A stretch of DNA of 64,000 bases from Gammaproteobacteria bacterium (GTDB lineage: Bacteria > Pseudomonadota > Gammaproteobacteria > Pseudomonadales > Pseudomonadaceae): assembly GCA_023475025.1 (NCBI GenBank), contig JAMCWB010000030.1:1853-65852 (forward strand), read 5' to 3'. The notes under the pieces are model-generated. The model saw only the letters and a list, made by a program, of their open reading frames with translations, had not been told where the DNA came from and did not search any database. The translations under genes and the position numbers were made by a program. The first letter of the stretch is position 1; every line of letters begins with the position of its first letter. Below, piece by piece: positions 23,002 to 42,292 of the stretch.

Positions 23002-26000
23002 GCTCACCTCCACACATCTGGTGGAACGCAGCCAGAGCGGGTACCGCCTCTTGTGCCTCCGGGGCGGTAGCCAGCGCTGAGTCACCGACGCAGATCAACA
23101 TTTGCCTCTGACGGCTCATGGCAACGTTCATACGGTTGGGCAGCCTCAAGAACCCAAATTGCCGGTTGAGCTGCTTTTCCCGCTCGGCATCCCCCTCACT
23201 TCCCTGCCCCGGTGTTACAGGTTTATAGGTTCGAACACATGACAACAGCACAACATCAAACTCCTTGCCCTGGAACGCGTCGACAGAGCCAACCCGTAGC
23301 CGCTCTTCAGAGTTGACGGAGCCGTCCCCGCGCACCTTTCTTGTCCATTTGAAGATCTCATGGGGTTCGTAAGCTCCGTTGCGCAGCACCATCAGCGGTA
23401 CGCCATCGATGCGCTGCTCAGAGAGCTTCTCCATGATCAACTCGCGCTGTGCTGCATAGAAGGTTATGACACCCACCGATAGACTATCGCCACCAGCCTG
23501 CAGCAACCTCACTACCTCCTCGGCAATGCGCAGCGCCTCTACCTCCCTCACGCGACTTGTGCCTGAGCGCATCTCCTTACCCTGCCCCGCAGGCACATCT
23601 ATCCACTGGCAGACGCGGTCACGATAATGGCTAGCCAAAGGGCCAAGTCCGGCAAGGAAAGTCTCAGAAAAAACAAAATCCGCGGCGTCACGACCAGAAC
23701 GAATTCGCCCCAGCCCTTGGGATTCGTAAAATTGAGTACTTATAAAGTCACCAAGTAATGGGTGCATCCGGAACTGGGTGTCCAACATAACCACGCGACG
23801 GATATTGTCCTGCCTTTCAAGATCTTGCAGCTTGATACGCATTCGCTCGAACAGGCTCGAGCGAAAGGCCGCCAACTGCAGCTCGGTAAGCTGGTGCTCC
23901 GCCTGCAGCTGGCCCTCGATATCTGGCTCCAGCATGTGTGGTAACTGTCTGTCATCCCCGACCAAGACTATTCGGCGCTTTGCCATGGCCATAGGCACAA
24001 ACAGATCCAACGGGTTGGCACGGGCAGCCTCATCAATAACCACGGTATCAAATTCGATATCCGTGCTATCCAGATTCGATACTGATTTGAGGTTTGCCAT
24101 CTGCCTTCCTGCTGCCTGCTGGCAGGTAGCACCAACCACCATTGAATACTCATGCACGACCGCCTGTGCGGCGGCCCGGTCAATCGCCAGGCTATCCGCC
24201 AGCTGCTCCAGCACCCCGGCTACCCCCTGCTTACGCTGGCGCAGCCGGGTCTCCAGGTGTCGTTCAATCTCATCCAGCAGTGCCACCCCCTCTGGATCTG
24301 CCTGCTGCCTCAAGCTCACTGGTCGATAATCTGGCATATAAAGATCAAGTAACCGAGGCTTCCAGGCAGCCAGGTTTTGCAGCGTGGAGTCTTGAGTCTC
24401 TGTGCTATCCGCCGCCTCTTCCAGCACAGCAAACAGATCCGGATTGGTGTCTATGCCTTGACGCTTCAACCAACTGAGCAGGTCCCATGCGCGGTCCGGG
24501 CCATCGTCGTTAAATGAGGTCTCATCGACGCGAAGCGCTCTAACCCTTCTCAGAACCTGAACATTATGACCATCAACCGAAGTAGTAGGCGCCTGCCTTT
24601 GCAGTTGCTCGATGTACTCCTCGACCTGACTTTCAAGCCGCGGTGGCATTACCAAGCCACTTACCTCCAGCTCGCGCAACCCGTTCAAAATGCTCACGAA
24701 GCTCTCAGCCTGACTCCCGGGCGAAGCACCGGCAATTCTTGCCAAAGCCAGTTGGGTCGACAGATTCCGGACAAGCTCCAGTTCAGGATATTTGCCGTAC
24801 TGCTCGATCACCTTACCCTGCAGATGCTCGACCTGACGATCCAGCCATGGATCAATCAGGGAATCTTCTTCCTGCGCTCCCCGCTTACCACCCACTCGAG
24901 CCCCGGGCAGGCCAAACACATCGCTACGATCCAACGCGTTATCGACGGCGTCATGCTGGAAACTGCTGATCAGCACTTGCGCAGCAATATTATTCTCTTC
25001 AGCCTCTTCCGCGAGGCGGCGCTGCAGGGCTGCTATGACCTGAGTCTTACCGGTTCCTGGGGGGCCAATTATGATGGCCATATCAGGCGTGTTCAGTGCC
25101 GTATCCAACGCCAGGATCTGCTTCTCAGTGGGCTTGCCTCCCTTGAAGGTTTCCAATGCATACGGCGTCAGCCCCTTGATTGGACGGCGCCTGGAAGCGG
25201 GCACAGCCACACCTTCCAGCAACCACTTCAACTGGGGTAGTCGTTTCCCGGAATCAATCGACTGTTTTGCTGCCAGACGACGTTTACCCACCGTCCGCTG
25301 GCCGGCCAGCGACAGATAGATCCAGCCCTCAGGCTTTCTAGGGCGAATACTGCGGCGATTTGAAACTGGCTTGAAAACAACGCAGTTCTGCTCAAAGCGA
25401 ATTGTGCCCCGCGGATTATCCTGCTCAGCCTTCACTTCATCCGTAGTCAGTTCCTCAGCCCAGTCAGGGCGATCAACGCTGAGATCGACCTGCGTGCCTG
25501 CAGCAAGGTCCAGGTTGCGCCAACGTGAACGAAACTCTCTGTAATCGTCCAATGAGGCTGGCGTCAGTCGCCAGACGTTTTCGCGGCCCTCTTCATGCCC
25601 TTCCCATTCCACAAAGCGCAGGGCACGCAAGGTTTCAGCCTGAGTCAGCGCGGTTTGCCACTCCCTATCGTTGTAGAGATTCCATAGCTCCAGATAACTG
25701 GCACTGTCGCGCAACGCTGCATCAAGCGCCGCCCGATAACCAGGGCTGGCAAGAACAGCGGCAACCGACGCATCACGAAACGCAAACTGACCCAGGAGCA
25801 ATGAAAAGGCACCATCCCGGCGCGTATGACGGGTAATTCGCTTGATCAGTAACCCTTGATCCGCGCCCTGTTGCACATCTGCCCGCCAGCCCTTGCCCAC
25901 CAGCTGGAAAGCGCCACGGGATGTGCTGTTACTGAATCGTGCCACTGTGAGCCAGTCGCCCTCAGCTTGGTCGCGCACAAGAAAAGTCTCAGCCAACCAA

Positions 26001-26374
26001 TCGCAGGCCAGCTCAATACGCTGGTCGGGGATTTCCTGCTTGCTGTAGAGGTCTTCCACTATCAGCTCATCAACTCCGAGCTCAAGCTCCATGGCAGAAA
26101 TCTCAACTGGCGCACAGTACTGCACCAAAAGCTTGTCAGCCTGTTTGCTAGTGAGCAGCCAGCGTGTCTGATCCCTTAGAACCAAGCGGCTGAACAGGCC
26201 ATGATCAGCCCTCGCACAACTGACTCGAATCCGTTCATCTTTCTGCACAGCCAGCCATTCATCTTGATAGGCCTGCAGAAGCATCGCCTGCCCCACTTGA
26301 AAGCCGTCTGTTGATTCATCTGAGCTGAGAACCAGGACATCCTCGGACAGCAGGGGAAAGTGTTTAAAGTCCAT
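22985..26374 (-). CDS. Upf1/DNA2-like SF1B helicase with about 430-aa unknown N-terminal region (CnuH-like)
   Basis: 1129 aa. Helicase motifs are IIGPPGTGKT, VVIDEAARA, VLVGDDRQLP, VDAFQGKEFDVVLLS and NVAMSRQRQMLICVGD. Confidence 0.8.
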   Translation of the reverse strand: MDFKHFPLLSEDVLVLSSDESTDGFQVGQAMLLQAYQDEWLAVQKDERIRVSCARADHGLFSRLVLRDQTRWLLTSKQADKLLVQYCAPVEISAMELELGVDELIVEDLYSKQEIPDQRIELACDWLAETFLVRDQAEGDWLTVARFSNSTSRGAFQLVGKGWRADVQQGADQGLLIKRITRHTRRDGAFSLLLGQFAFRDASVAAVLASPGYRAALDAALRDSASYLELWNLYNDREWQTALTQAETLRALRFVEWEGHEEGRENVWRLTPASLDDYREFRSRWRNLDLAAGTQVDLSVDRPDWAEELTTDEVKAEQDNPRGTIRFEQNCVVFKPVSNRRSIRPRKPEGWIYLSLAGQRTVGKRRLAAKQSIDSGKRLPQLKWLLEGVAVPASRRRPIKGLTPYALETFKGGKPTEKQILALDTALNTPDMAIIIGPPGTGKTQVIAALQRRLAEEAEENNIAAQVLISSFQHDAVDNALDRSDVFGLPGARVGGKRGAQEEDSLIDPWLDRQVEHLQGKVIEQYGKYPELELVRNLSTQLALARIAGASPGSQAESFVSILNGLRELEVSGLVMPPRLESQVEEYIEQLQRQAPTTSVDGHNVQVLRRVRALRVDETSFNDDGPDRAWDLLSWLKRQGIDTNPDLFAVLEEAADSTETQDSTLQNLAAWKPRLLDLYMPDYRPVSLRQQADPEGVALLDEIERHLETRLRQRKQGVAGVLEQLADSLAIDRAAAQAVVHEYSMVVGATCQQAAGRQMANLKSVSNLDSTDIEFDTVVIDEAARANPLDLFVPMAMAKRRIVLVGDDRQLPHMLEPDIEGQLQAEHQLTELQLAAFRSSLFERMRIKLQDLERQDNIRRVVMLDTQFRMHPLLGDFISTQFYESQGLGRIRSGRDAADFVFSETFLAGLGPLASHYRDRVCQWIDVPAGQGKEMRSGTSRVREVEALRIAEEVVRLLQAGGDSLSVGVITFYAAQRELIMEKLSEQRIDGVPLMVLRNGAYEPHEIFKWTRKVRGDGSVNSEERLRVGSVDAFQGKEFDVVLLSCVRTYKPVTPGQGSEGDAEREKQLNRQFGFLRLPNRMNVAMSRQRQMLICVGDSALATAPEAQEAVPALAAFHQMCGGEHGSLR

Positions 26375-26380
26375 ATGCCA

Positions 26381-27790
26381 TCACCACCTGAACTGCCAGA
26401 AGATGTGCGAAGCGTCTAGATCGCCCACGTGAACCCGATAAGGTTCCGCATGCTGGCCACGCAAACTGTGTTTCAGTCCTTGATAGACCTCGAGGGCCTT
26501 TTTGGTCTGCCCGCGCTGGAGAGTCAGCCGACCTTCCAGCAGAGGGTAAATACCCAACCCTTTTTCTGTGAACTCAACACGGATATGGTCGGCGGGCCAA
26601 CGGTCGTAACTGAAGGTTGGCATCAACCGCTTCAGCTCCAGATCTGCCCCAAGTTGCAACCAGACCTTGCGGCCAGTTGCCATTTCAACGTCGTCTGCCG
26701 CTTCCTGGCTGTCTTCATCTTTTAGCTGAACGACAAACTCCTCGAACAACACCGCAGTGCTGTCGAGGGGGGTATCGCAAAAGAAGCAGCACTGGTCATC
26801 GAGCGAGTTAATTTCCTGCGGCACCAGGGTGCTGCCGCCACACCCATTGCAGGCAATCAGGCGCTCATCGATTTCGCTGAGCGCTTCCAGCCACTCAGCC
26901 ATACCCGGCCGCTCCGCCGGGTTATCTCGCCCTTGCTCAAAACAACGAGCAAAAAGCGCAGGCAGTTTGCTGTGCTCGATGAGCTGGATTGGCAGATTTA
27001 TAAAGCAGGCATTGGCATCATCGTGCGGGTCATGGATCCATGGTCGCTCGCCACGCAGTGCCGCATCTTCTTCCTCTGGCTCGCAATCACTGATCAAGTC
27101 ACCCTTGAACGGGTGATTGTGGGTCAGCAACTGATAGGCGATAACAGCAAAGCTCCAGGCATCGGTGAGACTGGACAAAAGGGAGTCACCGCGAACGACC
27201 TCGGGCGCTCCATAATCTACGGTGTGCAATGACAGGCCACTATGAGACTCCAGACTGATATTGTCGCAATCGATCAGCCATGTTTCGGCGTGGGCTGAAT
27301 CGTCTGATACAAATATATTGCTGGGTGACAGGTCGCCATACAGCATGCCTCGGGCGTGCAGTTGATTAAGCGTTCTGGCCAACTGACAGAGAATGCGCAC
27401 ACGACGACGAAGCCCACCCTGGCGCAGGTAATCAGCAGATGCTTCTTCGCCTGCCTCTACATAGCTCTCGAGCAATCGTTGCAAAGGCTCCAACCCATCC
27501 ATCAACTCCATAACATAACCACAGCGCGGCTCTGCAAGTGGCGATAGCGGACGAGCCAGTTTCAGACCGGCAAGATCCTGACGAATCAGCCACGCAATGT
27601 GTTTCTGCCAGCGCCGGCGAGCCTGAGGGTCTTTATTTGTGAACCCCTTGATAAGAACCTGTGGGTACTGGGTGTGGTAGACAATACCTTGACCACCACG
27701 GCTGAGCTCTTCGCACAGCTCGTAGATTGAACCCTTGGTGTCTTGCACCATGCGCTTGGGTCGCGCGCTTGTCTTTGCGGTCATCTGCAT
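26381..27790 (-). CDS. Ser/Thr protein kinase with C-terminal zinc ribbon (TerY-P kinase)
   Basis: Gly-rich loop GGQGIVY, catalytic loop YGDLSPSN, DCD in place of DFG, and YGAPE. A CNGCGG...CCFFC motif follows. TGATG coupling to the PP2C gene. Confidence 0.85.
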   Translation of the reverse strand: MQMTAKTSARPKRMVQDTKGSIYELCEELSRGGQGIVYHTQYPQVLIKGFTNKDPQARRRWQKHIAWLIRQDLAGLKLARPLSPLAEPRCGYVMELMDGLEPLQRLLESYVEAGEEASADYLRQGGLRRRVRILCQLARTLNQLHARGMLYGDLSPSNIFVSDDSAHAETWLIDCDNISLESHSGLSLHTVDYGAPEVVRGDSLLSSLTDAWSFAVIAYQLLTHNHPFKGDLISDCEPEEEDAALRGERPWIHDPHDDANACFINLPIQLIEHSKLPALFARCFEQGRDNPAERPGMAEWLEALSEIDERLIACNGCGGSTLVPQEINSLDDQCCFFCDTPLDSTAVLFEEFVVQLKDEDSQEAADDVEMATGRKVWLQLGADLELKRLMPTFSYDRWPADHIRVEFTEKGLGIYPLLEGRLTLQRGQTKKALEVYQGLKHSLRGQHAEPYRVHVGDLDASHIFWQFRW

Positions 27791-28482
27791 CAGTCCATTC
27801 TGAAAATGCCGGCTATGGTCTTGTCATCACCGTGTCGGGGTGTCGACCATCCGTTCAGTTCACGCGTCAGCCATTGACGCATCTGGCGTTTACTTGAGCG
27901 CCGCTGGCGCTGGTAAATCGCCTCGAAAAAAGACTCAAGATGCTCAGGAATAAGATCGTCGGAAATACCATCCGTCATCAGCAGCACACCATCGCCCGGG
28001 CGACCGAGTTCGATGTCAGTACTGTTGATCGTCTGGAGATCAGCCTGAGCCAGCGTTAGTGTCTGATTGCCGAACCCCTGGCGCTGCTCGGTGATTACGC
28101 GGAACTCACCATGACTTCTTACCAGGAGCAAACCGTCACCTATCTGCCCAGCTACGCCCTTTCCACAAGCATCGACCAGAGCCCAGATACAGGTCGCCTC
28201 ATACGCGCTGTGCCTGGCCCCGAAACGGTTCAGCCAGGCATCCCGCAGAGCGCAACCGACCTTATCATGCTTCAGGTCTGACCCCTGCCGAGCCAACTGT
28301 CTGAACAGCCGAACAGCTCTAGCTGAACCATAATGGCTTAGCGGCCGACTACCCAGCCCATCGGCTACGGCGATACACCAGCCACCTTTCAATCCGCGGA
28401 TACAGAGCGCATCCTGATTCGGAGCACCCTCCTGCACATGTGCAGGCCCGCGAACCGAGGAGCCTCCTGCTGAAAGTCGCAT
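27790..28482 (-). CDS. PP2C-family protein phosphatase (TerY-P phosphatase)
   Basis: NQDAL..., VADGLGS and LLMTDGISDDL metal-binding motifs. TGATG coupling on both sides. Confidence 0.85.
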   Translation of the reverse strand: MRLSAGGSSVRGPAHVQEGAPNQDALCIRGLKGGWCIAVADGLGSRPLSHYGSARAVRLFRQLARQGSDLKHDKVGCALRDAWLNRFGARHSAYEATCIWALVDACGKGVAGQIGDGLLLVRSHGEFRVITEQRQGFGNQTLTLAQADLQTINSTDIELGRPGDGVLLMTDGISDDLIPEHLESFFEAIYQRQRRSSKRQMRQWLTRELNGWSTPRHGDDKTIAGIFRMD

Positions 28483-29168
28483 CAGAACTCCCAGTCTTGA
28501 TCATCACCTTTTTGAATCTGCAGGGGTGTGGACTGATTGGGTGTAGCTGACTGACTGCGAGCGCTGACGCTCATGGTCACCGCACGGAAGAAGCGATGAA
28601 TGTCTGCGGCATTTTCTGCGCGAAACAGCGGAGCTTCGGGGTCATTGGCAAAGGTGCTGAGCATGTCCTCATCCGCATCGGCACCGATCGCCATGGCAAA
28701 GCGGGTTGCCTTGGCGCTCCGTTCACCCTTGGCCAGACGCTGAAACGGCCCCTGCCACTCATCGTTCGGGTAGCCATCAGAGACCAGTACAACAACCGGT
28801 CTATAGGCGCGAGAGGGAACGCTGTCCTTGTCTTCAATCATGTCGCTCAGCAGCGTCAGTGCGCCACCCAACGGAGTCATACCTTCAGCGGTCAGTGGCG
28901 TGAAACCGCTCAACTGATGCGCTGGCGTCAGGGGCAAGCTGACGGAAGCTTGATTGCCACCAAAAGTAATCACGCTGACCTGAATCTCGGCGCGCAAACG
29001 ACTTTCACCAGCAAAACTTTGGATCATGTCCTTGAGCCCCTTGTTAAGGGCTTCGATCTTGCCATCGACGGACATGCTGCCACTGGTATCGGCCAACACG
29101 ATGATCGGCAGAGGTCGGGCGGTTTGAACCTGGAATTTCTTCAACTCAGACATCAATGTCTTCCTCAA
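28482..29168 (-). CDS. TerY-like von Willebrand factor A protein
   Basis: MIDAS DTSGS, downstream GMTPLG and VLVSDGYPND, 228 aa. Confidence 0.85.
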   Translation of the reverse strand: MRKTLMSELKKFQVQTARPLPIIVLADTSGSMSVDGKIEALNKGLKDMIQSFAGESRLRAEIQVSVITFGGNQASVSLPLTPAHQLSGFTPLTAEGMTPLGGALTLLSDMIEDKDSVPSRAYRPVVVLVSDGYPNDEWQGPFQRLAKGERSAKATRFAMAIGADADEDMLSTFANDPEAPLFRAENAADIHRFFRAVTMSVSARSQSATPNQSTPLQIQKGDDQDWEF

Positions 29169-29252: not shown

Positions 29253-30149
29253 TTAGCGCATTACCTTGTTCCAGTCGATGCCATAGCCAGCGGCGTCCAG
29301 CTCACGAGCAAGCGCTTGTTTCCAGCCGCCACTTTTATCCATGTTTTCCCACACCACTCCGGCAAAATCGCTCGGAATCTCAAGCTCCCCACTTTTCAGT
29401 GCACAGACCCGCTCCCGCCCCAGTCGACCTATGAAATAGCCCAACTCCAGCAATACGTTCTGTCTTGCTCTGAGTTCCGGGGTACCACCCTTTACGCACC
29501 CTTCGTCATCCGGCGTTAGCAACACAACAGCGAACCCGACATCACTGTGGGCGACCACCTTTTCGATGATGGTGCGCCCCTGGTTGGCTTGTTCATGCAG
29601 GATGATGGCTTCCAGGCCCATGCGCTCAAGGAACCGCGCAACCGACTCGCGTGCACCATCATCGTGGCCGTGGACGATAAAAACCTTGCTTGAAAAGGGG
29701 AGCTTAAGCGTAGTACCCGTATCGCCACGAGAATTCACATAGCTCTTATAGTCGCGCACAAAAGGAATAATAAGCTGGCCAGTGAGGGTATGAATTCCAG
29801 CTATGACCTTGTTCCCGGAATGAAAATAATGGAGGCAAAAATTGATCGCATAATCAGGATCTGCAGCCAGCTTTTGTATTAAAAGCAGCGTCAAACCTAA
29901 TGATGCTTTATGATCATCCGGCCAAGCCAGCTTGGCGCTTCCCATCATGCCAGTTGCGGCTTTTCCACTTTCCTCAAGGAAAGCCTCCAAATCGACGCCA
30001 GCAGTAAGCTCGTCATTAAAAGGCGCAAGATCAGAATGCTTAAGCAGCTGGGCCAGCTTGCGCAAGGGACGCTCGAAAGTCTGCATCTGAGAATTTTGCA
30101 GATCCAGTACGGCATGGTTGATTTCAGTAAAAAGATCCTGACCCATCAC
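29253..30149 (-). CDS. Two-domain protein with C-terminal bacterial TIR-like nucleotide-binding domain
   Basis: The C-terminal half reads KVFIVHGHDDGARESVARFLE..VVLLTPDDEG..RARQNVLLELGYFIGRLGRERVC..PSDFAGVV. This matches the TIR-like family seen in Cap12/PycTIR effectors. The N-terminal 150 aa are unrecognised. Confidence 0.7.
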   Translation of the reverse strand: MMGQDLFTEINHAVLDLQNSQMQTFERPLRKLAQLLKHSDLAPFNDELTAGVDLEAFLEESGKAATGMMGSAKLAWPDDHKASLGLTLLLIQKLAADPDYAINFCLHYFHSGNKVIAGIHTLTGQLIIPFVRDYKSYVNSRGDTGTTLKLPFSSKVFIVHGHDDGARESVARFLERMGLEAIILHEQANQGRTIIEKVVAHSDVGFAVVLLTPDDEGCVKGGTPELRARQNVLLELGYFIGRLGRERVCALKSGELEIPSDFAGVVWENMDKSGGWKQALARELDAAGYGIDWNKVMR

Positions 30150-30430
30150 TGACCTCCTTCTGATTGCAATCTGGCTTCTGCTGCTTTTTGCAGGATCTGC
30201 TCCCGATATTTTTCCTTCATCTGAATAACTAACGGCCCGACAATCGAATTGGACGCATATTCCGTAACCCGTAGATCAATAGTCTGGCTAATCTGATTGA
30301 TCGCTGACTCAATACTGGAAGGGTCATAAGGGTTAAATTTTACAACCCCAAGTTCACCATCCAACTCGGAGAGAGCACGCTGAGCGTCCTCGAGCTGTTT
30401 TTGCAGCTTATCAAAACCTTTGATTTTCAT
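30146..30430 (-). CDS. Small helical protein, unknown function
   Basis: Track ORF 30146..30448 (TTG). ATG 30430 is preferred because of AGGAGG 6 nt upstream. The stop overlaps the TIR-like start by 4 nt. Confidence 0.6.
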   Translation of the reverse strand: MKIKGFDKLQKQLEDAQRALSELDGELGVVKFNPYDPSSIESAINQISQTIDLRVTEYASNSIVGPLVIQMKEKYREQILQKAAEARLQSEGGQ

Positions 30431-30503
30431 TGAATGCCTCCTGGCCAATTGATGTTCGACTCACTTCTCACCTTCCTAAGTAAAGGCGAGACACTGAGTT
30501 CTA

Positions 30504-30520
30504 AGCGAACATCGTGCCAA
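30504..30520 (-). promoter_or_regulatory. Sigma-54 (-24/-12) promoter P2
   Basis: The minus strand reads TTGGCACGATGTTCGCT, with correct GG-N10-GC spacing. It is about 60 nt upstream of the small-protein ATG and matches P1 at 16 of 17 positions. Confidence 0.65.
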
Positions 30521-30590
30521 AATATAAAACCCAATAAAAACAGCGCGTTGCGCAAGCGACGCATAGCTCTCCGCTTCACACATAACAACA

Positions 30591-30612
30591 AATATTACAT
30601 TTTGGTAATATT
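30591..30612. promoter_or_regulatory. AT-rich inverted repeat about 85 bp upstream of P2 (candidate enhancer/UAS)
   Basis: AATATTAC-N6-GTAATATT, followed by a third TATTAC. Confidence 0.35.
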
Positions 30613-30646
30613 TATTACCGCCACACAGTTGCCTTGGGAGGCGGCG

Positions 30647-31561
30647 CTACTCCTCAAAATAATCCGAGTCCAACCGTTTCACCTCGTAGGTCGCTATCGT
30701 GGAGACTCCAACCCCGGTGTCGATCATCAGGCTCACCAGCTTCTCGCCGTCAATCAGCACGATACGGGTATCAATGAGCGAGGCATACTCTATCGCTTCT
30801 GAGCTGAAGCTGGATGTAGTCAGGAAAACCCCTTTCTTGGCTCTCTGGCCCTGGAGCGCGCCGGCGAATTTCTGTATTTCGGGGCGGCCTACGGTACCTT
30901 CCCAACGCTTGGCCTGCAGGTAGATGACATCCAGGCCGAGCCGATCTTCCTTGATAACGCCATCAATACCGCCGTCGCCGGAGCGGCCGAGCGTCTGTCC
31001 TGCGTCCTTGCGCGAGCCGCCATAGCCGAGCCTTACCAGCAGCTCGACGACCAGGCGCTCGAAGAATGCTGGGGACGCAGCCTTGATTCTGGTTATGAGT
31101 TCTTCCTTTAGCTCCTCACGGACGGTCTGATAACCAAACTCCATATGTTCCGATGGTGTCAGTGTGTCCGTTTCGATGGAGCCCACCGGGGTGGCTGCTG
31201 CAGGCTTTTCGGGTTTGCTCCCCGACTGGAACGCTGTGTACTCATCAAACTGGCGCAGGTAGGACATATTTATTGGAGCTGCATCCTGCGCCAGCGCCTC
31301 CAGCCCTCGCTGGGTTATCCGATAGCGGGCTCGGCTGGGCGATTCAATCAGGCCGGCACCTTTGAGATGGGTTTTTGCCCAGCCTATGCGGTTATCAAAC
31401 AGCCGTGCGTAGCCACTGGGCAGCATTTCGGCCAGCTCGTCCTCGGTCAGCTGAAAATACCCGGCAAGATACTCGTTGGTTTCACGATTAGTCCGCACCG
31501 CTCCGTCAGCGAGGTGCTCCAGCAGAGGGCGCATGATTGTCTGGAAGTCGGGTATTGCCAT
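30647..31561 (-). CDS. mrr: Mrr-family type IV restriction endonuclease
   Basis: N-terminal Mrr_N-like wHTH and C-terminal catalytic core GDGGIDGVI...LQAKRW. Confidence 0.85.
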   Translation of the reverse strand: MAIPDFQTIMRPLLEHLADGAVRTNRETNEYLAGYFQLTEDELAEMLPSGYARLFDNRIGWAKTHLKGAGLIESPSRARYRITQRGLEALAQDAAPINMSYLRQFDEYTAFQSGSKPEKPAAATPVGSIETDTLTPSEHMEFGYQTVREELKEELITRIKAASPAFFERLVVELLVRLGYGGSRKDAGQTLGRSGDGGIDGVIKEDRLGLDVIYLQAKRWEGTVGRPEIQKFAGALQGQRAKKGVFLTTSSFSSEAIEYASLIDTRIVLIDGEKLVSLMIDTGVGVSTIATYEVKRLDSDYFEE

Positions 31562-31616
31562 GTTGTCGGTGTTCCTTTCCTGGATGGCCTTAGTTGGCTT
31601 ATTGACCGAAGTTAGT

Positions 31617-32777
31617 CTACAGCTGGCCGGAGAAGGCTTGTTGGCTCAACGAGCTGGCTAATCTCTCCTGTGCTGCGAGAGCATCCAGAAGACGACCTCG
31701 GTGCGACTCAAAAGCTTTATAACGATCAAGGAAAGCTATTTGCTGCGCGTGCGGGGGCAAGGCCACTGGTGTTTTTGCAATCAACCCAACATTCAATGTG
31801 GGCTGGGCTACTGCACGAGTTTCCCGCTTGAAATAGCCTTGAACTACCGGACTCTGTAGGTAGCGATAAACATACTCGCGGTTTACGCCTTCACGAATAG
31901 GTATCCGCGTGACTGCTCGCGCAATATTCCATCCAATCATTGCATCGCTGGCCCAACCGACACGACCAATAGTGCCTACGCAAGCGATCAGAATTTCATT
32001 TCCTTTCAGCTTTGATTTCCTATGCTTCGAATCAATGCTTGCCGACACTCGCCTTAGCTGGGCGACGTCAGGAGTAACATCAGAAAGATCTCCAGACCTT
32101 ACCAATGGAACACCGTCCTCTTCGTGATCACCCGGCTGAACAACGCCGTAGTTCAATTTGTCATTGGGATCAATGAGCGTAGAAAGCTCAACGACATTCC
32201 ACCCCTTCGGATTCGTCACCGGATCACCAAACATCTCCAGAAACACGGCGCGGAGGAAGTCGTCGGCGAGCTGGATGGCTTGCTGGCGTTTGCGGCGAAT
32301 GGCGTCGGCCTTGTCGAGGATGGCGGCGATGCGCTTTTGTTCGGGCAGGGGTGGGAGGGGGATTTCTACTGCTTCAAGCTTGCCTTTAGTAATGTGCTTA
32401 AGGCCAACCCCGCCATGAGCCTGATCAATAATCAGGTCCAGCTTAGAATTTATTGCATATCGAAGATAATTTTTATCGATATGACGCTCATCAATATCAA
32501 CCCTAAAAATATGTTGATTTAGAAAGCCCTTGCCCCGATTCCAGAAGAATGCACCAAAGGAAGTCCCTGGAGTGCCAGACCAAGAGAAAAGCAAGTCCCC
32601 CGGATCCACGTGGAATCTTTTTTCCACCTCAAAATCGCAATAATTGAAAGGTTTAGTTTCATCATTGAGATTTTGGATTCGAACAATAGGAGTGCCCGAG
32701 GCCGACCACTCCTCCGGCTTAAATGCTCTCCCGTTCTGAAGGCTGCATACACTTCCAAAGGGAACGAGATTCATCAC
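31617..32777 (-). CDS. hsdS: Type I R-M specificity subunit
   Basis: 386 aa in a two-TRD layout with conserved LPPLPEQKRIAAILD and LPPHAQQIAFLD spacer helices. 4-nt overlap with hsdM. Confidence 0.88.
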   Translation of the reverse strand: MMNLVPFGSVCSLQNGRAFKPEEWSASGTPIVRIQNLNDETKPFNYCDFEVEKRFHVDPGDLLFSWSGTPGTSFGAFFWNRGKGFLNQHIFRVDIDERHIDKNYLRYAINSKLDLIIDQAHGGVGLKHITKGKLEAVEIPLPPLPEQKRIAAILDKADAIRRKRQQAIQLADDFLRAVFLEMFGDPVTNPKGWNVVELSTLIDPNDKLNYGVVQPGDHEEDGVPLVRSGDLSDVTPDVAQLRRVSASIDSKHRKSKLKGNEILIACVGTIGRVGWASDAMIGWNIARAVTRIPIREGVNREYVYRYLQSPVVQGYFKRETRAVAQPTLNVGLIAKTPVALPPHAQQIAFLDRYKAFESHRGRLLDALAAQERLASSLSQQAFSGQL

Positions 32778-34378
32778 AACATTCCCTCCAACTCATCCAG
32801 ATCCGCCATGATCTCCCGCTCCAGCGCCTTCAACCGCTGCAGTATCACCTTCGGGTCTTCGTATACTTCTTCCTCGTACACCACTTCCTTGTAGCGGTTG
32901 ATGGACAGATCGTACTTGTTGGCGGCGATATCGGCGGCGGGGACGACGAAGGCTTTCCGGGTCTTGTCACCAAAGATGGTGTCGATGCTGGAGGCCTTGA
33001 GGTTGCTTTCGACCATCTGCCGGTACTTGTGCCACTGGCCGATGGCATCGGGCAGGTCGTTGCTGCCCTCGCCTTTCAGCTCGGCGCGCTTGTCATCCAG
33101 CGAGTAGCCGTCGGCCTGCAGGTCATAAAACCACACACGCTCGGTGCTGCCGCCCTTGGTGAAGATGAGGATGGCGGTGCTGACGCCGGCGTAGGGTTTG
33201 AACACGCCGCTAGGCAGGCTGACGATGCCTTCGAGCTGGTTGTTGTCGAGCAGCTCCTGACGCAGTTGCTGGTGGGCCTTGGATGAGCCGAACAGCACAC
33301 CGTCCGGCACGATCACGGCGGCGCGACCACCGAGTTTGAGCGAGCGCAGGATGTGGGCGACAAACAGCAGCTCGGTCTTCTTGGTTTTCACCAGACCGAG
33401 CACGTCGGGGTTGGTGTTGCTTTCATCCAGGCTGCCTTTGAATGGCGGGTTGGCCAGCACCACATCGAAAAAGTTTTCTTCCTGCTCGGGGTAGTGCTCC
33501 TTGATCGATTTGCTCAGGGAGTCCTGGTACAGGATGTTGGCGCCATGCACGCCGTGCAGCATCATGTTCATGCTGGAGACGCGCAGCATGGTGGTATCGA
33601 AGTCGAAGCCCCAGAACATGCTGCGGTTGATGTGCTCACGGTAAGGCTCCAGCAGGTCGCCGGTGTAATGTTTGTTGCCGTCTTCATCGGTAAAGATGCC
33701 GGCTTCGCTGGAGTGCTCGCGGTTAAGGTATTCCATGGTGCGGGCGAGGAAGCCGGCGGTACCGCAGGACGGATCGCAGATAACATCGGTAGGCTGCGGG
33801 GCAACCAACTCGATCATGGCGTCGATGATGTGGCGAGGCGTGCGGAACTGACCGTTGATGCCGGCGGTGGTCAGTTTGCTCAGCAGGTATTCGTAGATAT
33901 CGCCCTTTACATCACTCTGGTTCAGCGGCAGGTCGTTGACCATTTCCACGGCGGAGGTCAGCACCGATTCGTTCTTGATCTCCAGATCGGCGTCCTGCAT
34001 GTATTCGCCGATATGCCCCAGCCCCTCCAGTGCACTGCCTTCATCACCCAGGCCATCGGCGTTGTCAGACTGCTTGCCCAATTTGGCAAAGTAGGGGTAA
34101 ACCTTGTGCCGGAGGTGGCTGTGCAGCTCCTTGCCGCTCATGTTGCGGAAGTTTTTCCAGCGCAGCAGCTGGCCTTCCGGGGTATTGGGAAACAGCCGGT
34201 CAAAGACCTTGCCGGTGCGATTGGCCTTGCGCTCGGCGACGTCTTCCTGCATGTCGAGCATGCGGGCGAACATCAGGTAGCTGATCTGTTCGATCACTGT
34301 CAGCGGGTTGGTGATGCCGCCGGTCCAGAATTTTTCCCAGAGTTTGTCTATGTCGTTACGGATTTTGCCAGTGAGCAT
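32774..34378 (-). CDS. hsdM: Type I R-M N6-adenine DNA methyltransferase
   Basis: Motif [11 protein letters not shown] and motif IV NPPFKGS, with an HsdM N-terminal domain. Confidence 0.92.
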
Positions 34379-34385
34379 GGGTGTT

Positions 34386-35450
34386 TCAATTGTCCTGTTG
34401 TGGTGTATCTGATTGGTATCGGGCGGCTGCTTCCTTCAGGCGCAGCACTCTTTCCCGTTCGCGCTCCAGTTCCCGTGCCAGTTCCTCTTCAGTGGGCAGG
34501 GCTGTGAGGTATTTGGAGGCGAACAATTGCTTGCTTTCGCTGAGCACGGAGTATTTGGCGACGGTGTTATTGCGCTCGCTGCACAGAATCAGCCCGATGG
34601 TCGGGTTGTCGTCGGGGCGGCGTTTGTGTTCTTCATACATGCGCACATACATGTCCATCTGGCCCACGTCCTGGTGGGTGAGCTTGTGCATTTTCAGGTC
34701 GATCAGCAGAAAGCATTTGAGATGAAAGTTGTAGAACACCAGATCGATGAAGTAGTCGCCGTCATCGGTGCGGATGCGTTGCTGGCGTTCGACGAAGGCA
34801 AAGCCCTTGCCCAGCTCCAACAGGAACTGCTGCAGGTTGGAGATGATGCCCTGTTCGAGGTCGCTTTCCTGCCAGGTTTTATCCGGCAGGTTGAGAAAGT
34901 CGAGGATGTAGGGGTCGCGCAGGTAATGTTTGGGATCATCCTGCAGCGGCTCGGTTTTCTCCTGTGCTTCCTGCTCGACAGTGGACTTGTCCTTGCTGGC
35001 GAGCAGGCGCTCGTAATACAGCGTGCCGATCTGGCGCTCCAGTGCGCGGACGCTCCAGTTCTCATCCGCCGCCTCATCCGCATACCACTGCCTGGCAGCA
35101 GGGTTCTCAATACGCATCAGGGTTCGATAGTGGCTCCAGCTCAAAACACTACGCAGTGTGTAGTGTTTTGGGAAAGTCAGGTAGAACTGCCGCATATTGC
35201 GCAGGTTGCCCACATCAAACCCTTTGCCAAACTCGGCCTGCAGGCGCTCTGACAACTGTTTGAGCTGCTGCTTGCCGTACTCTGCCCGCTGCTGCCCTTG
35301 CTGCTCCTGCTCTACAATCAAGCGGCCGATATGCCAGTAGGCCTGAACCATGTGCTGGTTGACCGCCTGCCTGACCTGCTGGCGGGCCTGGGCAATGACT
35401 TCTGCTATGGCCTGATAAAGCGTGCCCGGCACCAGATCCTTACTGGCCAT
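34386..35450 (-). CDS. YhcG/DUF1016-type PD-(D/E)xK nuclease-like protein
   Basis: Start placed at ATG 35450 (AGGAGG 7 nt upstream) within track ORF 34386..35489. The core reads [20 protein letters not shown]. The gene is inserted between hsdR and hsdM. Confidence 0.8.
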
Positions 35451-38835: not shown

Positions 38836-38846
38836 GCTGGTTGAAT

Positions 38847-38863
38847 AGCGAAGATCGTGCCAA
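38847..38863 (-). promoter_or_regulatory. Sigma-54 (-24/-12) promoter P1
   Basis: The minus strand reads TTGGCACGATCTTCGCT, with GG-N10-GC spacing. It begins 3 nt after the activator's stop codon and ends 12 nt before the hsdR ATG. Confidence 0.65.
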
Positions 38864-38865
38864 CA

Positions 38866-40350
38866 CTATTCAATGCCGTACTTCTCCATCCAGTTAGTCA
38901 GCGTTTGCTGGCTTTTCAGACCCAGTAATTTGGCTGCTCGGGTCTTGTTACCTGCTGTCTGCTGCAGTGCCTGCTCTAGGTAAGGGCGCACAAATTCGCC
39001 AAGTAGCGCTTGTATATCAATGCCTTGAGAGACATCGAGCCCAGTTGACTTGTCCATCTTAGCAGGCATATCAAACAACGCACCGGCCATATCCTGTTGT
39101 TCGATAGTATCACCTTGGCACCAAAGTGCAGCCCGCACTAGTGTCGCTTGCAGTTCACGAACATTTCCTGGCCACGCATGCTGAAGTACAAGTTTTTTTC
39201 CTTCAGCAGAAATTTTCTTACCGGCCAGAGCGGTATCCTGCCTGCCGATTACCGCCAGCAGCGCTTCGCACAGCAGCAACAAATCACCCTCCCGCTCCCG
39301 CAAAGGCGGCAGATGCAGTACGCCCACTGCAACCCGGTAAAATAGATCTTCACGAAAGCAACCCGCTGCAACATCCGCCATCAGATTGCGGTGGGTCGCA
39401 GCAACCAGCCGGACATCCACACGTTGCTCTACTGACCCGCCCACTGGCGTACACACCCCTTCCTGCAACACTCTCAGTAGACGGACCTGAACGTCGGCCG
39501 CCAGCTCACCAAACTCGTCAAGGAAAAGGGTGCCACCGTCAGCCTGCTGGAAAACCCCAAGCCGGTCAGCAATGGCACCGGTAAAAGCCCCCTTTTTGTG
39601 ACCAAACAATGTTGAGTCGATCAACTCGGAAGGAATGGCGCCACAGTTCACCGCTACAAAGGGCTTGGCTGCTCGCGGCCCAGCATTATGGATCGCCCTG
39701 GCAAACAGCTCTTTGCCGGTACCGGTTTCACCATAGATCAGCACAGGTACCAGCTTTTGCGCTAGCACCTCTGCCTGCTGCTTAAGCAACAGCATGGTTT
39801 TATTTCGCGTGATGATATTGTCGAAGGCCGCATTAACCGGTGCCGCCTGCATGAGCATGTTGTTCAAACTGGCGGCACTGATTTCTGCGGCAGCCGGCAC
39901 ATACTCCGCAGCGATCTCAAAGGGTATGTCGATCTGCTGAACGCCCTGCTCCAGCGAGGATTGGTAATAGAGGGCGGGATAGCGCGTCTTGCCCAGCAGA
40001 ATCCATACTGCCTGCATCGCAGGCGTACCCGGACTGAGCAAAATGGCCAGAGGCTCACCGCTGCTCTGCAGCCTGCGCAAATGACGCTCTGCAGCCTGAT
40101 AAATCTCGGCAAAGTTGACCGGTGAGCTCAGGGGCTCGTGGTAAACATTCAGCGGCGTTTCGGTATTCTCCGCCAGCCAGGCGCGGTAGCTCTCCAGCTG
40201 CTCTGGCGGATAGGAACAAAGCAGTTCAGCCCTGGCAAAGCTGCCAGCATGCAATGTAGAAAGCACAGGGCCCGGCAGACCGCCAGCCGGCGCTTTGAGA
40301 TCATTCCCGCCAATCCAGCTCACCAGAATCGGCAACTGCTTTTTCACCAT
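38866..40350 (-). CDS. RtcR-like sigma-54-dependent activator (CARF - AAA+ - Fis HTH)
   Basis: The N-terminal CARF-type signature LLSPGTPAMQAVWILLGKTRYPALYYQSS parallels E. coli RtcR HITTGTHVAQICWFLL. The AAA+ module has GETGTGKE and GAFTGA. The C-terminal HTH reads NKTRAAKLLGLKSQQTL. ATG 40350 is preferred over TTG 40362. Confidence 0.8.
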   Translation of the reverse strand: MVKKQLPILVSWIGGNDLKAPAGGLPGPVLSTLHAGSFARAELLCSYPPEQLESYRAWLAENTETPLNVYHEPLSSPVNFAEIYQAAERHLRRLQSSGEPLAILLSPGTPAMQAVWILLGKTRYPALYYQSSLEQGVQQIDIPFEIAAEYVPAAAEISAASLNNMLMQAAPVNAAFDNIITRNKTMLLLKQQAEVLAQKLVPVLIYGETGTGKELFARAIHNAGPRAAKPFVAVNCGAIPSELIDSTLFGHKKGAFTGAIADRLGVFQQADGGTLFLDEFGELAADVQVRLLRVLQEGVCTPVGGSVEQRVDVRLVAATHRNLMADVAAGCFREDLFYRVAVGVLHLPPLREREGDLLLLCEALLAVIGRQDTALAGKKISAEGKKLVLQHAWPGNVRELQATLVRAALWCQGDTIEQQDMAGALFDMPAKMDKSTGLDVSQGIDIQALLGEFVRPYLEQALQQTAGNKTRAAKLLGLKSQQTLTNWMEKYGIE

Positions 40351-40464
40351 CCATGCCCCCAAACAGCCATTCTTGTCTGTCCACTACACAAGCCAACAGA
40401 ACTGCTTAGTGCTCAGCTCACTACAACCTGAAAAGCTCAGCCATCACAACGCAGTTTATGCCAT

Positions 40465-40725
40465 TCAATTGCTACGGCCTTGGTCATCAAGGTCACTGAC
40501 TCGCTCGCTAGGAACGTATTCAACCAAGTCTTCTATCTTGCAATCAAAGTAACGGCACAGCCCATCAATATGCTCAGTACTGGTGCTGAATCCCCGCCGA
40601 TTGATCATCTTCGACAAGGTTACCCGGTGGATGCCGGCACCCTCCGCCACTTCCGCGATGGTAATGCGGCGCCCCTCCTCAAACTCCCTGCGGGCGATCA
40701 TTTCTTTGATCTTGAAACGAAGCAT
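40465..40725 (-). CDS. XRE-family HTH regulator
   Basis: 86 aa with the HTH ITIAEVAEGAGIHRVTLSKMINRR. It is divergent from the xis/int genes. Confidence 0.8.
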   Translation of the reverse strand: MLRFKIKEMIARREFEEGRRITIAEVAEGAGIHRVTLSKMINRRGFSTSTEHIDGLCRYFDCKIEDLVEYVPSERVSDLDDQGRSN

Positions 40726-40835
40726 ATTGGCTACATCCGTTACTTATATTTTTCAAATGTTAGCAATTGGCTGCAAAAAAAGCTTGCCTAACGAACCCGT
40801 CGAAGCTATACATATACACATGTAGCCAATTAGCT
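40726..40835. promoter_or_regulatory. Divergent promoter/operator region with ATTGGCT repeats
   Basis: A 10-bp perfect inverted repeat TTGGCTACAT (40727-36) / ATGTAGCCAA (40820-29), plus a third ATTGGCTGC at 40766-74. Confidence 0.5.
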
Positions 40836-40860
40836 ACATATGAAGCCCAAGGAGAACGTT

Positions 40861-41094
40861 ATGACTACTCAATACCTAACCACCGACGAGCTTGCAGCTC
40901 GCATCAAATATGACGCCAGAACAATTCGCGACCGACTCAAGGATAGCGTTTTGCTTGAGGGCGTTCACTACATCCGACCCTTTGGTGGACGCAAAATTCT
41001 TTATATCTGGGAAGCCATTGAGCGAGACATGGGCGGCACATCCAACAGCCCTCTTGCCATCCCCATGGCCAACGGAGGTGTCATGCATGGCTAG
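40861..41094 (+). CDS. AlpA/excisionase-family small DNA-binding protein
   Basis: ATG 40861 after AAGGAG. The sequence LTTDELAARIKYDARTIRDRLKD..GVHYIRPFGGRKILY is typical of Xis/AlpA HTH proteins. It overlaps the int start by 8 nt. Confidence 0.75.
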   Translation: MTTQYLTTDELAARIKYDARTIRDRLKDSVLLEGVHYIRPFGGRKILYIWEAIERDMGGTSNSPLAIPMANGGVMHG

Positions 41095-42292
41095 TATCCG
41101 TGTACGAGAACAGACAGGAAAACTGTTCTTCGACTTCCGTTACCGTAACAAACGATGCCGTGAGCAAACGGCCCTGGATGACACACCTACCAACCGGCGC
41201 AAGCTGGAAGGGATTTTGAAAAAGGTCGAGGCCGAAATCACTCTGGGGACGTTCGAGTATGCTCGGTATTTTCCGGGCAGCAAAAATGCCCAAAAGTTTG
41301 GCGAGGCCGCGACAGCTCAGGCGCAACTCAAGCACCACGCAACGCCACTTTTTAGTGACTTTGCCGATACCTGGTTTGCCGAAATGCAGGCTCAGTGGCG
41401 ACGCTCGCACATTGATACGGTGGCAGGCACTTTGCGCGCCTACTTGAAGCCAGAATTTGGTGAGAAAGAGGTCGGCTCCATCACCAAGGCAGAGATTTTA
41501 TCTTTCCGTTCCCAGCTCGCCAAAGTCAGAAACGGTAAAGACAAACCGCTGTCAGCAGAGAGAATCAACCACATCATGACGCCTTTGCGCATGATCCTTA
41601 ACGAAGCAGCCGACCGGTACGAGTTTACCTCACCCTATCAGGGCATCAAATCGCTAAAGGTACCGCGGACTGATGTAGAGCCGTTTACCGTCGACGAGGT
41701 CAAGCTGATCCTGCAAACGGTGAGGGCCGATTTTAAAAACTATTACACCGTGCGCTTTCTGACCGGAATGCGCACCGGTGAAATTGATGGGCTGCAGTGG
41801 CAATTTGTCGACTTTGAACGCCGACAAATTTTGGTGCGCCAGGCTCTGGTCAGAGACGAGCTGGTTTACACCAAAAATGATGGATCATTCCGCACCATTG
41901 ATATGTCCGGTCCAGTCTATGACGCACTGCAGGAGCAGCATAAAGCGACCGGTCAATTCGACTACGTGTTCTGCACGCGCAACGGCAAGCCTATCGCCCA
42001 CCGCAATATCACCCAACGGGTGTGGTACCCCTTGTTGCGGCACCTGGGACTACGTAAACGGCGGCCCTATCAAACCCGCCATACCGCAGCAACGCTTTGG
42101 CTGGCAGCAGGCGAATCGCCGGAATGGATTGCCCGCCAAATGGGCCATACCACCACCGAAATGCTGTTCCGCGTTTATTCCCGCTATGTGCCCAACCTCA
42201 CACGCCGTGACGGCTCTGCCATGGAACGTTTGCTGGTCAGTGAATTCAACCAAGCCAGCCATTCCGATGCTCAGGAGAAAGAACATGCTTAA
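41087..42292 (+). CDS. int: Tyrosine integrase with N-terminal arm-binding (DUF3596-type) domain
   Basis: ATG 41087 after GGAGG, within track ORF 40892..42292. The N-terminus reads IRVREQTGKLFFDFRYRNKRCRE. Catalytic motifs are GMRTGEI, TRHTAATLW and VYSRY. Confidence 0.88.
   Translation: MASIRVREQTGKLFFDFRYRNKRCREQTALDDTPTNRRKLEGILKKVEAEITLGTFEYARYFPGSKNAQKFGEAATAQAQLKHHATPLFSDFADTWFAEMQAQWRRSHIDTVAGTLRAYLKPEFGEKEVGSITKAEILSFRSQLAKVRNGKDKPLSAERINHIMTPLRMILNEAADRYEFTSPYQGIKSLKVPRTDVEPFTVDEVKLILQTVRADFKNYYTVRFLTGMRTGEIDGLQWQFVDFERRQILVRQALVRDELVYTKNDGSFRTIDMSGPVYDALQEQHKATGQFDYVFCTRNGKPIAHRNITQRVWYPLLRHLGLRKRRPYQTRHTAATLWLAAGESPEWIARQMGHTTTEMLFRVYSRYVPNLTRRDGSAMERLLVSEFNQASHSDAQEKEHA

Follow-up and report, generated by a model that had tools for sequence, protein, structure and literature searches.

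Two near-identical sigma-54 promoter motifs in a defence island with an RtcR-like activator: a candidate second promoter ahead of the Type II CoCoNuT genes

Results

Promoter motifs P1 and P2

A stretch of 64,000 nucleotides from a Gammaproteobacteria bacterium of the Pseudomonadaceae (contig JAMCWB010000030.1, positions 1,853 to 65,852), referred to here as the window, was analysed with regard to P2, a predicted sigma-54 (-24/-12) promoter inside a defence island. All genes of the island between 40.4 kb and 17.3 kb are encoded by the minus strand and either overlap or are separated by short gaps, starting with the gene of an RtcR-like activator. P2, with the motif TTGGCACGATGTTCGCT, is located at 30504..30520 on the minus strand (GG at 30518-30517 and GC at 30506-30505). 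The other motif of this type, P1 (TTGGCACGATCTTCGCT), is located at 38847..38863 on the same strand, 2 nt past the stop codon of the activator gene. The two motifs are identical at 16/17 positions and are separated by 8343 bp, and both have the GG-N10-GC spacing. The respective cores, TGGCACGATGTTCGCT for P2 and TGGCACGATCTTCGCT for P1, each carry one mismatch to TGGCAC-N5-TTGCW, namely C for T at -14.

P1 and P2 were the only matches in the window at no more than two mismatches, at a chance expectation of 0.04, and two matches were obtained with none of 100 shuffles. The initial annotation had reported the match of 16 of 17 positions over 8 kb, had regarded such identity as unlikely by chance and had made its proposal depend on the motif not being frequent at random positions. 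The match was confirmed at the same coordinates, and the other two points were borne out within the window by the counts above; the excess of likeness over chance is also general, as promoter pairs within an island are more alike (see below). Looser matches to the consensus were not enriched in the window (42 vs 53.6 expected), and it is the P1/P2 pair alone that stands out. The likeness between P1 and P2 ends at the borders of the 17-mer. A recent duplication of the whole segment as the source of the identity was rejected, because the flanks are unrelated right up to the 17-mer; the locus L006 (related loci are numbered with an L prefix), unlike the window, has whole modules duplicated.

Activator

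The activator gene (38866..40350, minus strand), 8 kb upstream of P2, encodes an RtcR-like bacterial enhancer-binding protein with a CARF domain (approximately residues 1-150), a sigma-54 AAA+ domain with the GAFTGA motif and a Fis-type HTH_8 domain. PF00158, PF25601 and PF02954 all matched in Pfam (Sigma54_activat, E = 2.4e-64), and the PADLOC family RtcR_PspF2--CARF_AAA_HTH was matched at positions 3-481 of 481 (E = 2.5e-204). Since no significant Pfam match was obtained with the first 180 residues alone, the fold of the N-terminal domain was assigned by structure prediction. An AlphaFold2 model was built on 33 homologs (pLDDT 84.8), and the search of the PDB by Foldseek gave CARF proteins at ranks 1-41, including Csm6 (6tug, E = 5.7e-5), Cam1, Can1, Cad1 and Card1. 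As modelled, the N-terminal domain is a CARF fold. In the CARF core and the AAA+ domain, the activator and E. coli RtcR share 34% identity. It was taken as an RtcR-like paralog and not as RtcR proper, because its score against the RtcR equivalog NF038308 of NCBIfam was 318.5 bits, below the cut-off of 650, and because no rtcB or rtcA gene was found near the activator gene, the neighbours of which are defence genes.

A small gene of the Cro/C1-type HTH_26 family (40465..40725, minus strand) is located directly upstream of the activator gene, as is also the case in L299 (9670-9930) and L300 (9622-9873). Its product may control the expression of the activator.

P1 in related loci

The sample for P1 consisted of 17 loci with full-length relatives of the activator from a genome scan and 6 loci from plasmid records, 23 altogether, and a motif was counted as P1 when a -24/-12 motif was present on the same strand from -60 to +300 nt relative to the end of the activator gene. 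Such a motif was found in 20/23 loci, in 19 of them with at most one mismatch, at chance expectations per locus of 0.012 (one mismatch) and 0.057 (two mismatches). The hosts include Pseudomonas, Azotobacter, Halioglobus, Geobacter, Polaromonas, Rhodoferax, Vibrio, Planctomycetota, Spirochaeta, Latescibacterota and Bacteriovoracaceae, and between these lineages the spacer of P1 differs while GG and GC are fixed. Among closer relatives, the same P1 was present in Halopseudomonas yangmingensis (L300, 91% identity), H. maritima (L301), P. aeruginosa and a metagenome-assembled genome (79%); P1 of L300 is identical to that of the window, and L299, L301 and L302 carry close variants. The genes hsdR-hsdM-hsdS follow P1 in 13 loci of the genome scan and in 4/6 plasmid loci, counting a degraded copy in L087. 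The CoCoNuT genes themselves are located directly behind P1 in Rhodoferax and Polaromonas plasmids.

In the window, an ATG at 38835 falls on the predicted +1 of P1, which suggests a leaderless hsdR message. An ATG at the predicted start, 10-14 nt past the P1 motif, was observed in at least 10 loci (among L001-L005, L008, L086, L087, L299-L302 and the window). In the window (38817-38863, minus strand) this ATG opens a six-codon in-frame extension (MDTIAF) ahead of the conserved start M(T/K)SVNFEFL, with no Shine-Dalgarno site, and gene callers disagree on the hsdR start (L302 vs L303).

P2 in related loci

Thirteen loci were reached through the TIR-like protein encoded behind P2, of which 4 have the TerY-P and CnuH genes downstream and 9 are free-standing. 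A sigma-54 motif 89-95 nt ahead of the ATG of yuaX was present in all of the 4 CoCoNuT-linked loci, at a distance of 89 nt in the window and of 95 nt in L081, L293/L294 and L307. The cores are TGGCACGATGTTCGCT in the window, TGGCACGGTATTCGCA in L081 and likewise in L307, and TGGCACGATATTCGCA in L293/L294. The spacer varies while GG and GC are kept, a pattern expected of a sigma-54 site and not of a repeat element. The gene just upstream of P2 varies as well, encoding Mrr, an Hhe-like protein or an OLD-family ATPase. No motif of the P2 type was found within 400 nt, even at two mismatches, in the 9 free-standing yuaX-TIR modules (L082-L084, L295-L297 and L304-L306); sigma-70 scans of these modules as a control were uninformative. 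When complete E. coli genomes were searched with the P2 region and the downstream genes, only free-standing yuaX-TIR modules were found, in 7 genomes and without CoCoNuT genes around them.

L293 and L299 overlap on a single contig, and between them they show the full architecture a second time, in the order integrase, HTH_26 gene, activator gene (79% identical), P1, hsdR, shdA, hsdM, hsdS, OLD, P2, yuaX, TIR-like gene and CoCoNuT. A weaker -24/-12-like motif, CGGCACTTACATCGCT, was observed in L081 at 3031, ahead of a DUF4011/Hhe-type helicase gene and approximately 6.6 kb upstream of the P2 of that locus. This motif could represent a third such promoter.

Several promoters per island

At least two sigma-54 promoter motifs were also present in L003, L006, L008 and L086. 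The second one of L003 is identical to its own P1 at 16/16 positions and is divergent from the activator gene, with a helicase gene with a zinc ribbon further downstream on the strand of this second motif. L006 (Latescibacterota) has two near-identical motifs (15/16) at 11531 and 14686, and in L008 the second motif is located after hsdS, ahead of a gene for a metallo-beta-lactamase fold protein. The cargo types found behind such promoters are CoCoNuT, STY4851-family and helicase genes, and DUF3696 ATPase modules. In six islands, pairs of promoters within an island shared 5.7 of 8 non-core positions, compared with 3.4 of 8 between islands, and 0/265 derangements reached 5.7. Within an island, the promoters either are copies of each other or are constrained towards a shared optimum.

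Two observations on these promoters are added here. In L006, two tandem modules, each pairing a DUF3696 ATPase gene with an unknown gene behind a sigma-54 promoter with a similar leader, come right after the RtcR-like activator gene. In addition, the promoter spacer can pair with the sequence just past the -12 element in L001 (11486), L002 (3126), L087 (21466), L302 (11487), L086 (21498), L008 (18793) and L003 (11499), and the pairings change in step between lineages (CGGTCC..GGACCG, GATCC..GGATC, AGGTAT..ATACCT and GCCCT..AGGGGC). P1 of the window is without such pairing, and in P2 it is limited to GTTC..GAAC. When the loci were permuted, at least 5 pairs of at least 5 bp were obtained in 1% of the permutations.

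Intergenic region around P2

P2 is located in the 216-bp gap between the end of mrr (30647) and the ATG of yuaX (30430) and is co-oriented with the downstream genes; its motif begins 89 nt ahead of this ATG. Transcription from a sigma-54 promoter starts approximately 12 nt downstream of the -12 element. By this geometry, the start of P2 is predicted at 30491..30495 (minus strand), approximately 12 nt past the -12 C at 30505, with a 5' leader of approximately 63 nt. The AGGAGG-ATG described downstream of P2 in the initial annotation is present: the Shine-Dalgarno sequence AGGAGG (30442-30437) and the ATG (30430-30428), together 30428..30442 on the minus strand, belong to the first P2 gene, yuaX, with AGGAGG 6 nt ahead of the ATG. 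The 3' end of the leader (CAAT..TTGCCAGGAG) is kept in L081 and L293.

Between P2 and the conserved element described below, an imperfect GC hairpin followed by CTG-T5 is located at 30536..30563 on the minus strand (stem at 30563-30544 and T5 at 30540-30536). It had been put forward as a possible terminator after mrr. The stem and the T5 do exist, but a terminator function was unsupported statistically: the hairpin (-12.8 kcal/mol) is no more stable than that of shuffled sequence (z = +0.28), and it was not reported by a scan with the terminator consensus. The terminator was accordingly rejected as a firm feature and kept as a possibility. A CAA-N4-TTG core with a T-tract, as in sites of the integration host factor (IHF), fits the same stretch equally well, so that the stretch may either weakly terminate the upstream unit or serve as a bending site of the IHF type (CAACGCGCTG with the T-tract behind it). 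The stretch TGCGCAAC...TTGTTTTT, between the element and P2, is partly conserved in L293 and L081.

No sigma-70-like promoter was found on the coding strand of the gap between mrr and yuaX by a promoter scan. Over 30400-40900, 2 sigma-70-like matches were obtained compared with 5.4 expected from shuffles, only one of them on the coding strand, and no obvious separate promoter for hsdM-hsdS was seen in this range.

Upstream element of P2

The AT-rich dyad upstream of P2 that had been noted in the initial annotation is present, and it belongs to a conserved 29-bp element, GGTAATAAATATTACCAAAATGTAATATT, at 30591..30619 on the minus strand. The dyad itself, AATATTAC-N6-GTAATATT at 30612-30591, has perfect arms of 8 bp and is unique in the window at no more than one mismatch. 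The centre of the element is approximately 108 nt upstream of the predicted P2 start, a typical position for an activating sequence, and in the alignment of P2 regions the element ends approximately 70 nt ahead of TGGCAC. It was aligned in five loci, namely the window, L086 (GATAAATAATATTACCGAAAGGTAACATT), L293 (GGTAAGAAACCTTATTTGAATGCAATGTT), L081 (GTTAAGAAGTCTTATTTAAAGATAAGATT) and L307 (GATAAGAAATTTTATTTAAAAATAATCTT), and the position weight matrix derived from these five sequences scored 44.5 at the P2 element and no more than 11.6 elsewhere in the window. L086 is a plasmid of P. luteola FDAARGOS_637, the activator of which is 67% identical to that of the window and has the same HTH recognition helix, SQQTL(T/S)NW. 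Its P1 is TGGCACGATCCTGGCT, and its second promoter, TGGCACGCAACATGCT, heads other, unrelated genes (one of the STY4851 family and one for a large helicase); the distance from the dyad to the promoter is 71 nt there and 73 nt in the window. No covariation of the dyad arms is seen, as the change in L086 is non-compensating (TATTACC / GGTAACA) and L293 loses the pairing and keeps the sequence blocks, and therefore a protein site fits better than an RNA helix. By sequence and position, the element is a candidate upstream activating sequence to which the HTH domain of the activator may bind.

The matrix also gave weak matches approximately 360 nt upstream of P1 in L001 and L300-L302. These sit on conserved codons (GKKIS) and probably reflect coding constraint, and they were not accepted as a P1 element. 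Further members of the regulon were not found by scans of the collection with the dyad and TGGCAC, for which the pattern TATTAC-N6-GTAAYA-N60-85-TGGCAC was too loose: the 120+ and 81 matches were almost all chance matches. Only 4 matches had the full TTGCW, and both of those with recognisable downstream genes belonged to operons unrelated to the island, aioBA and amt. In L164 (3257-3364, minus strand), a metagenomic aioBA-like arsenite-oxidase operon, the sigma-54 promoter TGGCACGATCCTTGCA stands behind the dyads TATTACCAATTGGTAATA and TATTACCATTAGGTAAT.

Genes of the two units

The edge of the island is marked by a tyrosine integrase gene (40892..42292, plus strand), which has the same position in L299. 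The transcription unit predicted for P1 (30647..38835, minus strand) extends from hsdR to mrr and consists of hsdR (35440-38835; DUF4145, HSDR_N, ResIII and EcoEI_R_C domains), a gene for a YhcG/DUF1016 nuclease (34386-35489), hsdM (32774-34378), hsdS (31617-32777) and mrr (30647-31561), all on the minus strand.

The unit predicted for P2 (17289..30430, minus strand) is tightly packed over 13.1 kb from yuaX to cnuC. Its genes, again all on the minus strand, encode a YuaX-like protein of 94 aa (30146-30430), a CAP12/Pycsar-type TIR-like protein (29253-30149), a TerY-like vWA protein (28482-29168), a PP2C phosphatase (27790-28482), a Ser/Thr kinase (26381-27790), the SF1 helicase CnuH (22985-26374; AAA_11 and AAA_12 matches), CnuE (21514-23085), CnuB (19082-21523) and CnuC (17289-19082). 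CnuE (523 aa) carries RNKSSH at the C-terminus (...DLRNKSSHAQ), an RxxxxH HEPN motif. CnuB (813 aa) is of the McrB type, with AAA_5 at residues 505-657 and an SMC/Rad50-like coiled coil at 167-451. CnuC (597 aa) is McrC-like, with a borderline DUF2357 match (23.2 vs 23.3 bits), and in L289 its homolog carries the DUF2357 annotation. The TerY-P triad of vWA protein, PP2C phosphatase and kinase is complete in the window, and the gene order of the unit recurs in L081, L293, L289 and L291. By gene content and order, the downstream half is identified as a Type II CoCoNuT with TerY-P (PMC11090510). The genes behind P2 had been described in the initial annotation as a TIR-like/TerY-P/McrBC half, which holds for the genes, but the described system to which they belong, a Type II CoCoNuT in a 'superoperon' with an RtcR homolog (PMC11090510), had been missed.

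The TIR-like protein is widespread, with approximately 78% identity across Vibrio, Pseudomonas, Yersinia, Serratia and E. coli, and was assigned by PADLOC to the candidate system PDC-S35. The yuaX-like and TIR-like genes form a two-gene module that is free-standing in Vibrio, in an integrative element of P. aeruginosa and in E. coli; in the island of the window, this module is placed between P2 and the CoCoNuT genes.

Discussion

Proposed regulation of the island

P2 is probably a functional sigma-54 promoter that depends on the activator of the island, for which we would give a probability of roughly 70%. The proposal made in the initial annotation, namely that P2 is a second sigma-54 promoter of the same regulon as P1 and heads the TIR-like/TerY-P/McrBC half, is supported and stood up to all in-silico tests that were run. 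Because P2 is near-identical to P1, the internal promoter of the CoCoNuT genes is most likely dependent on the activator, and the 'superoperon' is most likely two operons, one for DNA restriction and the other for yuaX/TIR-like/CoCoNuT, wired to one sensor. Sigma-54 RNA polymerase, the rpoN gene of which the host presumably carries, would be poised at P1 and P2 as a closed complex. A ligand or partner on the CARF domain would relieve the inhibition of the AAA+ domain, and by analogy with RtcR the signal could be RNA ends with 2',3'-cyclic phosphate. At P2 the activator would then bind the 29-bp element approximately 108 nt upstream of the start, where bending across the intervening T-rich stretch may aid the activation, and its ATPase would open the promoter. 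P1 would thereby drive hsdR, yhcG, hsdM, hsdS and mrr, and P2 would drive yuaX, the TIR-like gene, TerY-P, cnuH, cnuE, cnuB and cnuC.

Several points weigh against this proposal. The -12 element of both P1 and P2 is TCGC (TCGCT for TTGCT) while the consensus is TTGC. rpoN is absent from the 64-kb window, which is part of a 165.6-kb contig of a metagenome-assembled genome. The comparison for P2 covers a small sample of four islands, all from Pseudomonas or Halopseudomonas-like relatives. The symmetry of the dyad is clear in the window and L086 only, and the element is degenerate in L293, L081 and L307. Moreover, no dyad or element comparable to that of P2 was found upstream of P1 by dyad search, by the weight matrix or by reading the 3' part of the activator gene and the sequence that precedes this gene; the region upstream of P1 encodes the HTH domain of the activator. 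The observation in the initial annotation that P1 is without such a dyad and that its upstream region is coding therefore holds, and it follows that either the element is not the site of the activator or P1 is activated differently. Dyads like TATTAC-N6-GTAATA also precede the sigma-54 promoters of the unrelated operons aioBA (L164) and amt (L101), and the dyad is for this reason not diagnostic of the activator of the island; this half-site shape may be common to different HTH_8 activators. Finally, since the hairpin after mrr is weak, read-through from P1 into the second unit is possible.

Alternative explanations

The dyads ahead of aioBA and amt lead to the explanation that P2 works but is fired by another enhancer-binding protein of the host, of the NtrC family, the site of which would be the dyad. 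A dyad of the same type (TATTACC-N4-GGTAATA) occurs twice upstream of the aioBA promoter, and the absence of the dyad at P1 would also be accounted for. This explanation is nevertheless improbable, for in various hosts the element and the promoter accompany RtcR-like islands, both on plasmids and on integrative elements (L086, L293/L299, L081 and L307), and they are missing where the yuaX-TIR genes occur without such an island. Promoters of one island resemble each other more than those of different islands do, and a mobile island relying on a host-specific regulator would lose its control upon transfer. It would be about as surprising if the P2 motif were unused, its likeness to P1 being a relic of an old duplication, and transcription reached the downstream genes from P1 by read-through or began at a sigma-70 promoter that went unrecognised. 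The low stability of the hairpin (z = +0.28), the common orientation of all genes and the short gaps between them make read-through plausible, and such loci are treated as one superoperon with internal promoters expected to be independent of RtcR (PMC11090510). A relic would decay, yet in four islands with diverged spacers and leaders the GG/GC spacing is exact and the ATG stands at a fixed distance; the upstream element is conserved too, and the coding strand of the gap is without a sigma-70-like site.

The role given above to the dyad as the activator site is a separate matter, and here another function, either an RNA hairpin ending the mrr transcript or a bending site of IHF or another nucleoid protein, is unlikely and yet deserves more weight. 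As RNA, the dyad folds to a 12-bp A/U stem with a U-rich stretch after it; it is AT-rich like IHF and Fis sites, and the element is degenerate in three of the five loci. The non-compensating arm change of L086 and the loss of pairing in L293, on the other hand, fit a protein site and not an RNA helix. The centre of the dyad, approximately 108 nt upstream of the start, is at a position typical of an activating sequence; IHF sites are usually nearer, and a better IHF-like core (CAA-N4-TTG and T-tract) lies between the dyad and the promoter. The ACC..GGT shape of the dyad, furthermore, resembles known sites of HTH_8 activators such as the NtrC sites.

Significance

In a wider and tentative generalization of the proposal, which we consider possible but hold with less than even confidence, CARF activators of the RtcR_PspF2 family would run a private sigma-54 regulon of several promoters located wholly on mobile defence islands, in which a portable cassette of element and promoter plugs new cargo into one intracellular sensor, and restriction would be inducible, with a leaderless hsdR message from P1, alongside an RNA-targeting suicide module.

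Sigma-54 promoters are essentially silent without their activator, which would be fitting for effectors that are toxic, among them HEPN RNases and TIR-like proteins. Little is understood of how defence islands are switched, and most known cases involve sigma-70 repressors that carry WYL domains. If P1 and P2 answer to the CARF activator, the 20-kb 'superoperon' would be two units under one sensor, which would correct the expectation of 2024 that internal promoters are independent of RtcR. Type I restriction would then be induced and not constitutive, and it would have to be asked how the host chromosome is kept methylated and protected. The analysis provides precise positions for mutation and, as a candidate operator for footprinting, the 29-bp element; related islands are present in Pseudomonas aeruginosa, in which such work is practicable. 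The system is already known at the gene level and sigma-54 promoters with upstream sites are textbook knowledge; the cis-regulatory layer is what is added.

Comparison with known systems

The islands described by Bell, Sahakyan, Makarova, Wolf and Koonin (eLife 2024; PMC11090510) are among the known systems closest to that of the window. According to these authors, Type II CoCoNuT is often located behind an RtcR homolog, with Type I restriction-modification and other defence genes between them and all in one direction, as a 'superoperon'; the RtcR homolog was predicted to activate the downstream genes, and internal promoters were expected to be RtcR-independent. The window shares with these islands the RtcR homolog, the Type I restriction-modification genes, ancillary genes, the order TerY-P, CnuH, CnuE, CnuB and CnuC, and the single orientation. 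It differs from them in the yuaX/TIR-like pair between the promoter and TerY-P, and no promoters are identified in PMC11090510. A sigma-54 promoter map of such islands was not found in the literature searched, including PMC11090510, the Shield paper (PMC10270631) and the END-nuclease preprint (PMC12191111), the last of which lists such an island in P. aeruginosa.

The rtcBA-RtcR system of E. coli and Salmonella shares with the island the activator of CARF, sigma-54 AAA+ and HTH domains, and a -24/-12 promoter, in E. coli TGGCACGACGGTTGCA. The E. coli rtcBA promoter is laid out as an upstream activating sequence, an IHF site and a sigma-54 site (PMC9650030), and the layout of P2 matches this three-part order with the candidate activating element, the IHF-like site and the sigma-54 site. 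The signal of RtcR involves RNA ends with 2',3'-cyclic phosphate and the RtcA and RtcB proteins, and a form of RtcR truncated by removal of the CARF domain is constitutively active (PMC7790460, PMC9650030). The cargo of rtcBA is RNA repair enzymes, RtcB and RtcA, while that of the window is phage-defence genes. The activator gene of the window is co-oriented with P1 and abuts it, whereas E. coli rtcR is divergent from its target; the locus of the window, unlike rtcBA, has two promoters, and its activator belongs to the separate PADLOC family RtcR_PspF2. In the rtcR-rtcB intergenic region of E. coli K-12 (L298, 4130-4260), GGTAA and GGTTAC were observed approximately 100-130 nt ahead of TGGCACGACGGTTGCA; their likeness to the GGTAA/TTACC half-sites of the window may be due to chance.

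One activator serving several dispersed and similar -24/-12 promoters is established for PspF (pspA and pspG) and for NifA (nif operons). The island differs from these in that its whole regulon is apparently located on one mobile island and that P1 has no room for an intergenic upstream site. A ligand-sensing factor at the head of a defence island, proposed to couple a signal of infection or damage to expression, is shared with the WYL regulators BrxR and CapW. BrxR and CapW are sigma-70 repressors released on the signal, whereas the factor encoded in the window is predicted to be an ATP-driven sigma-54 activator.

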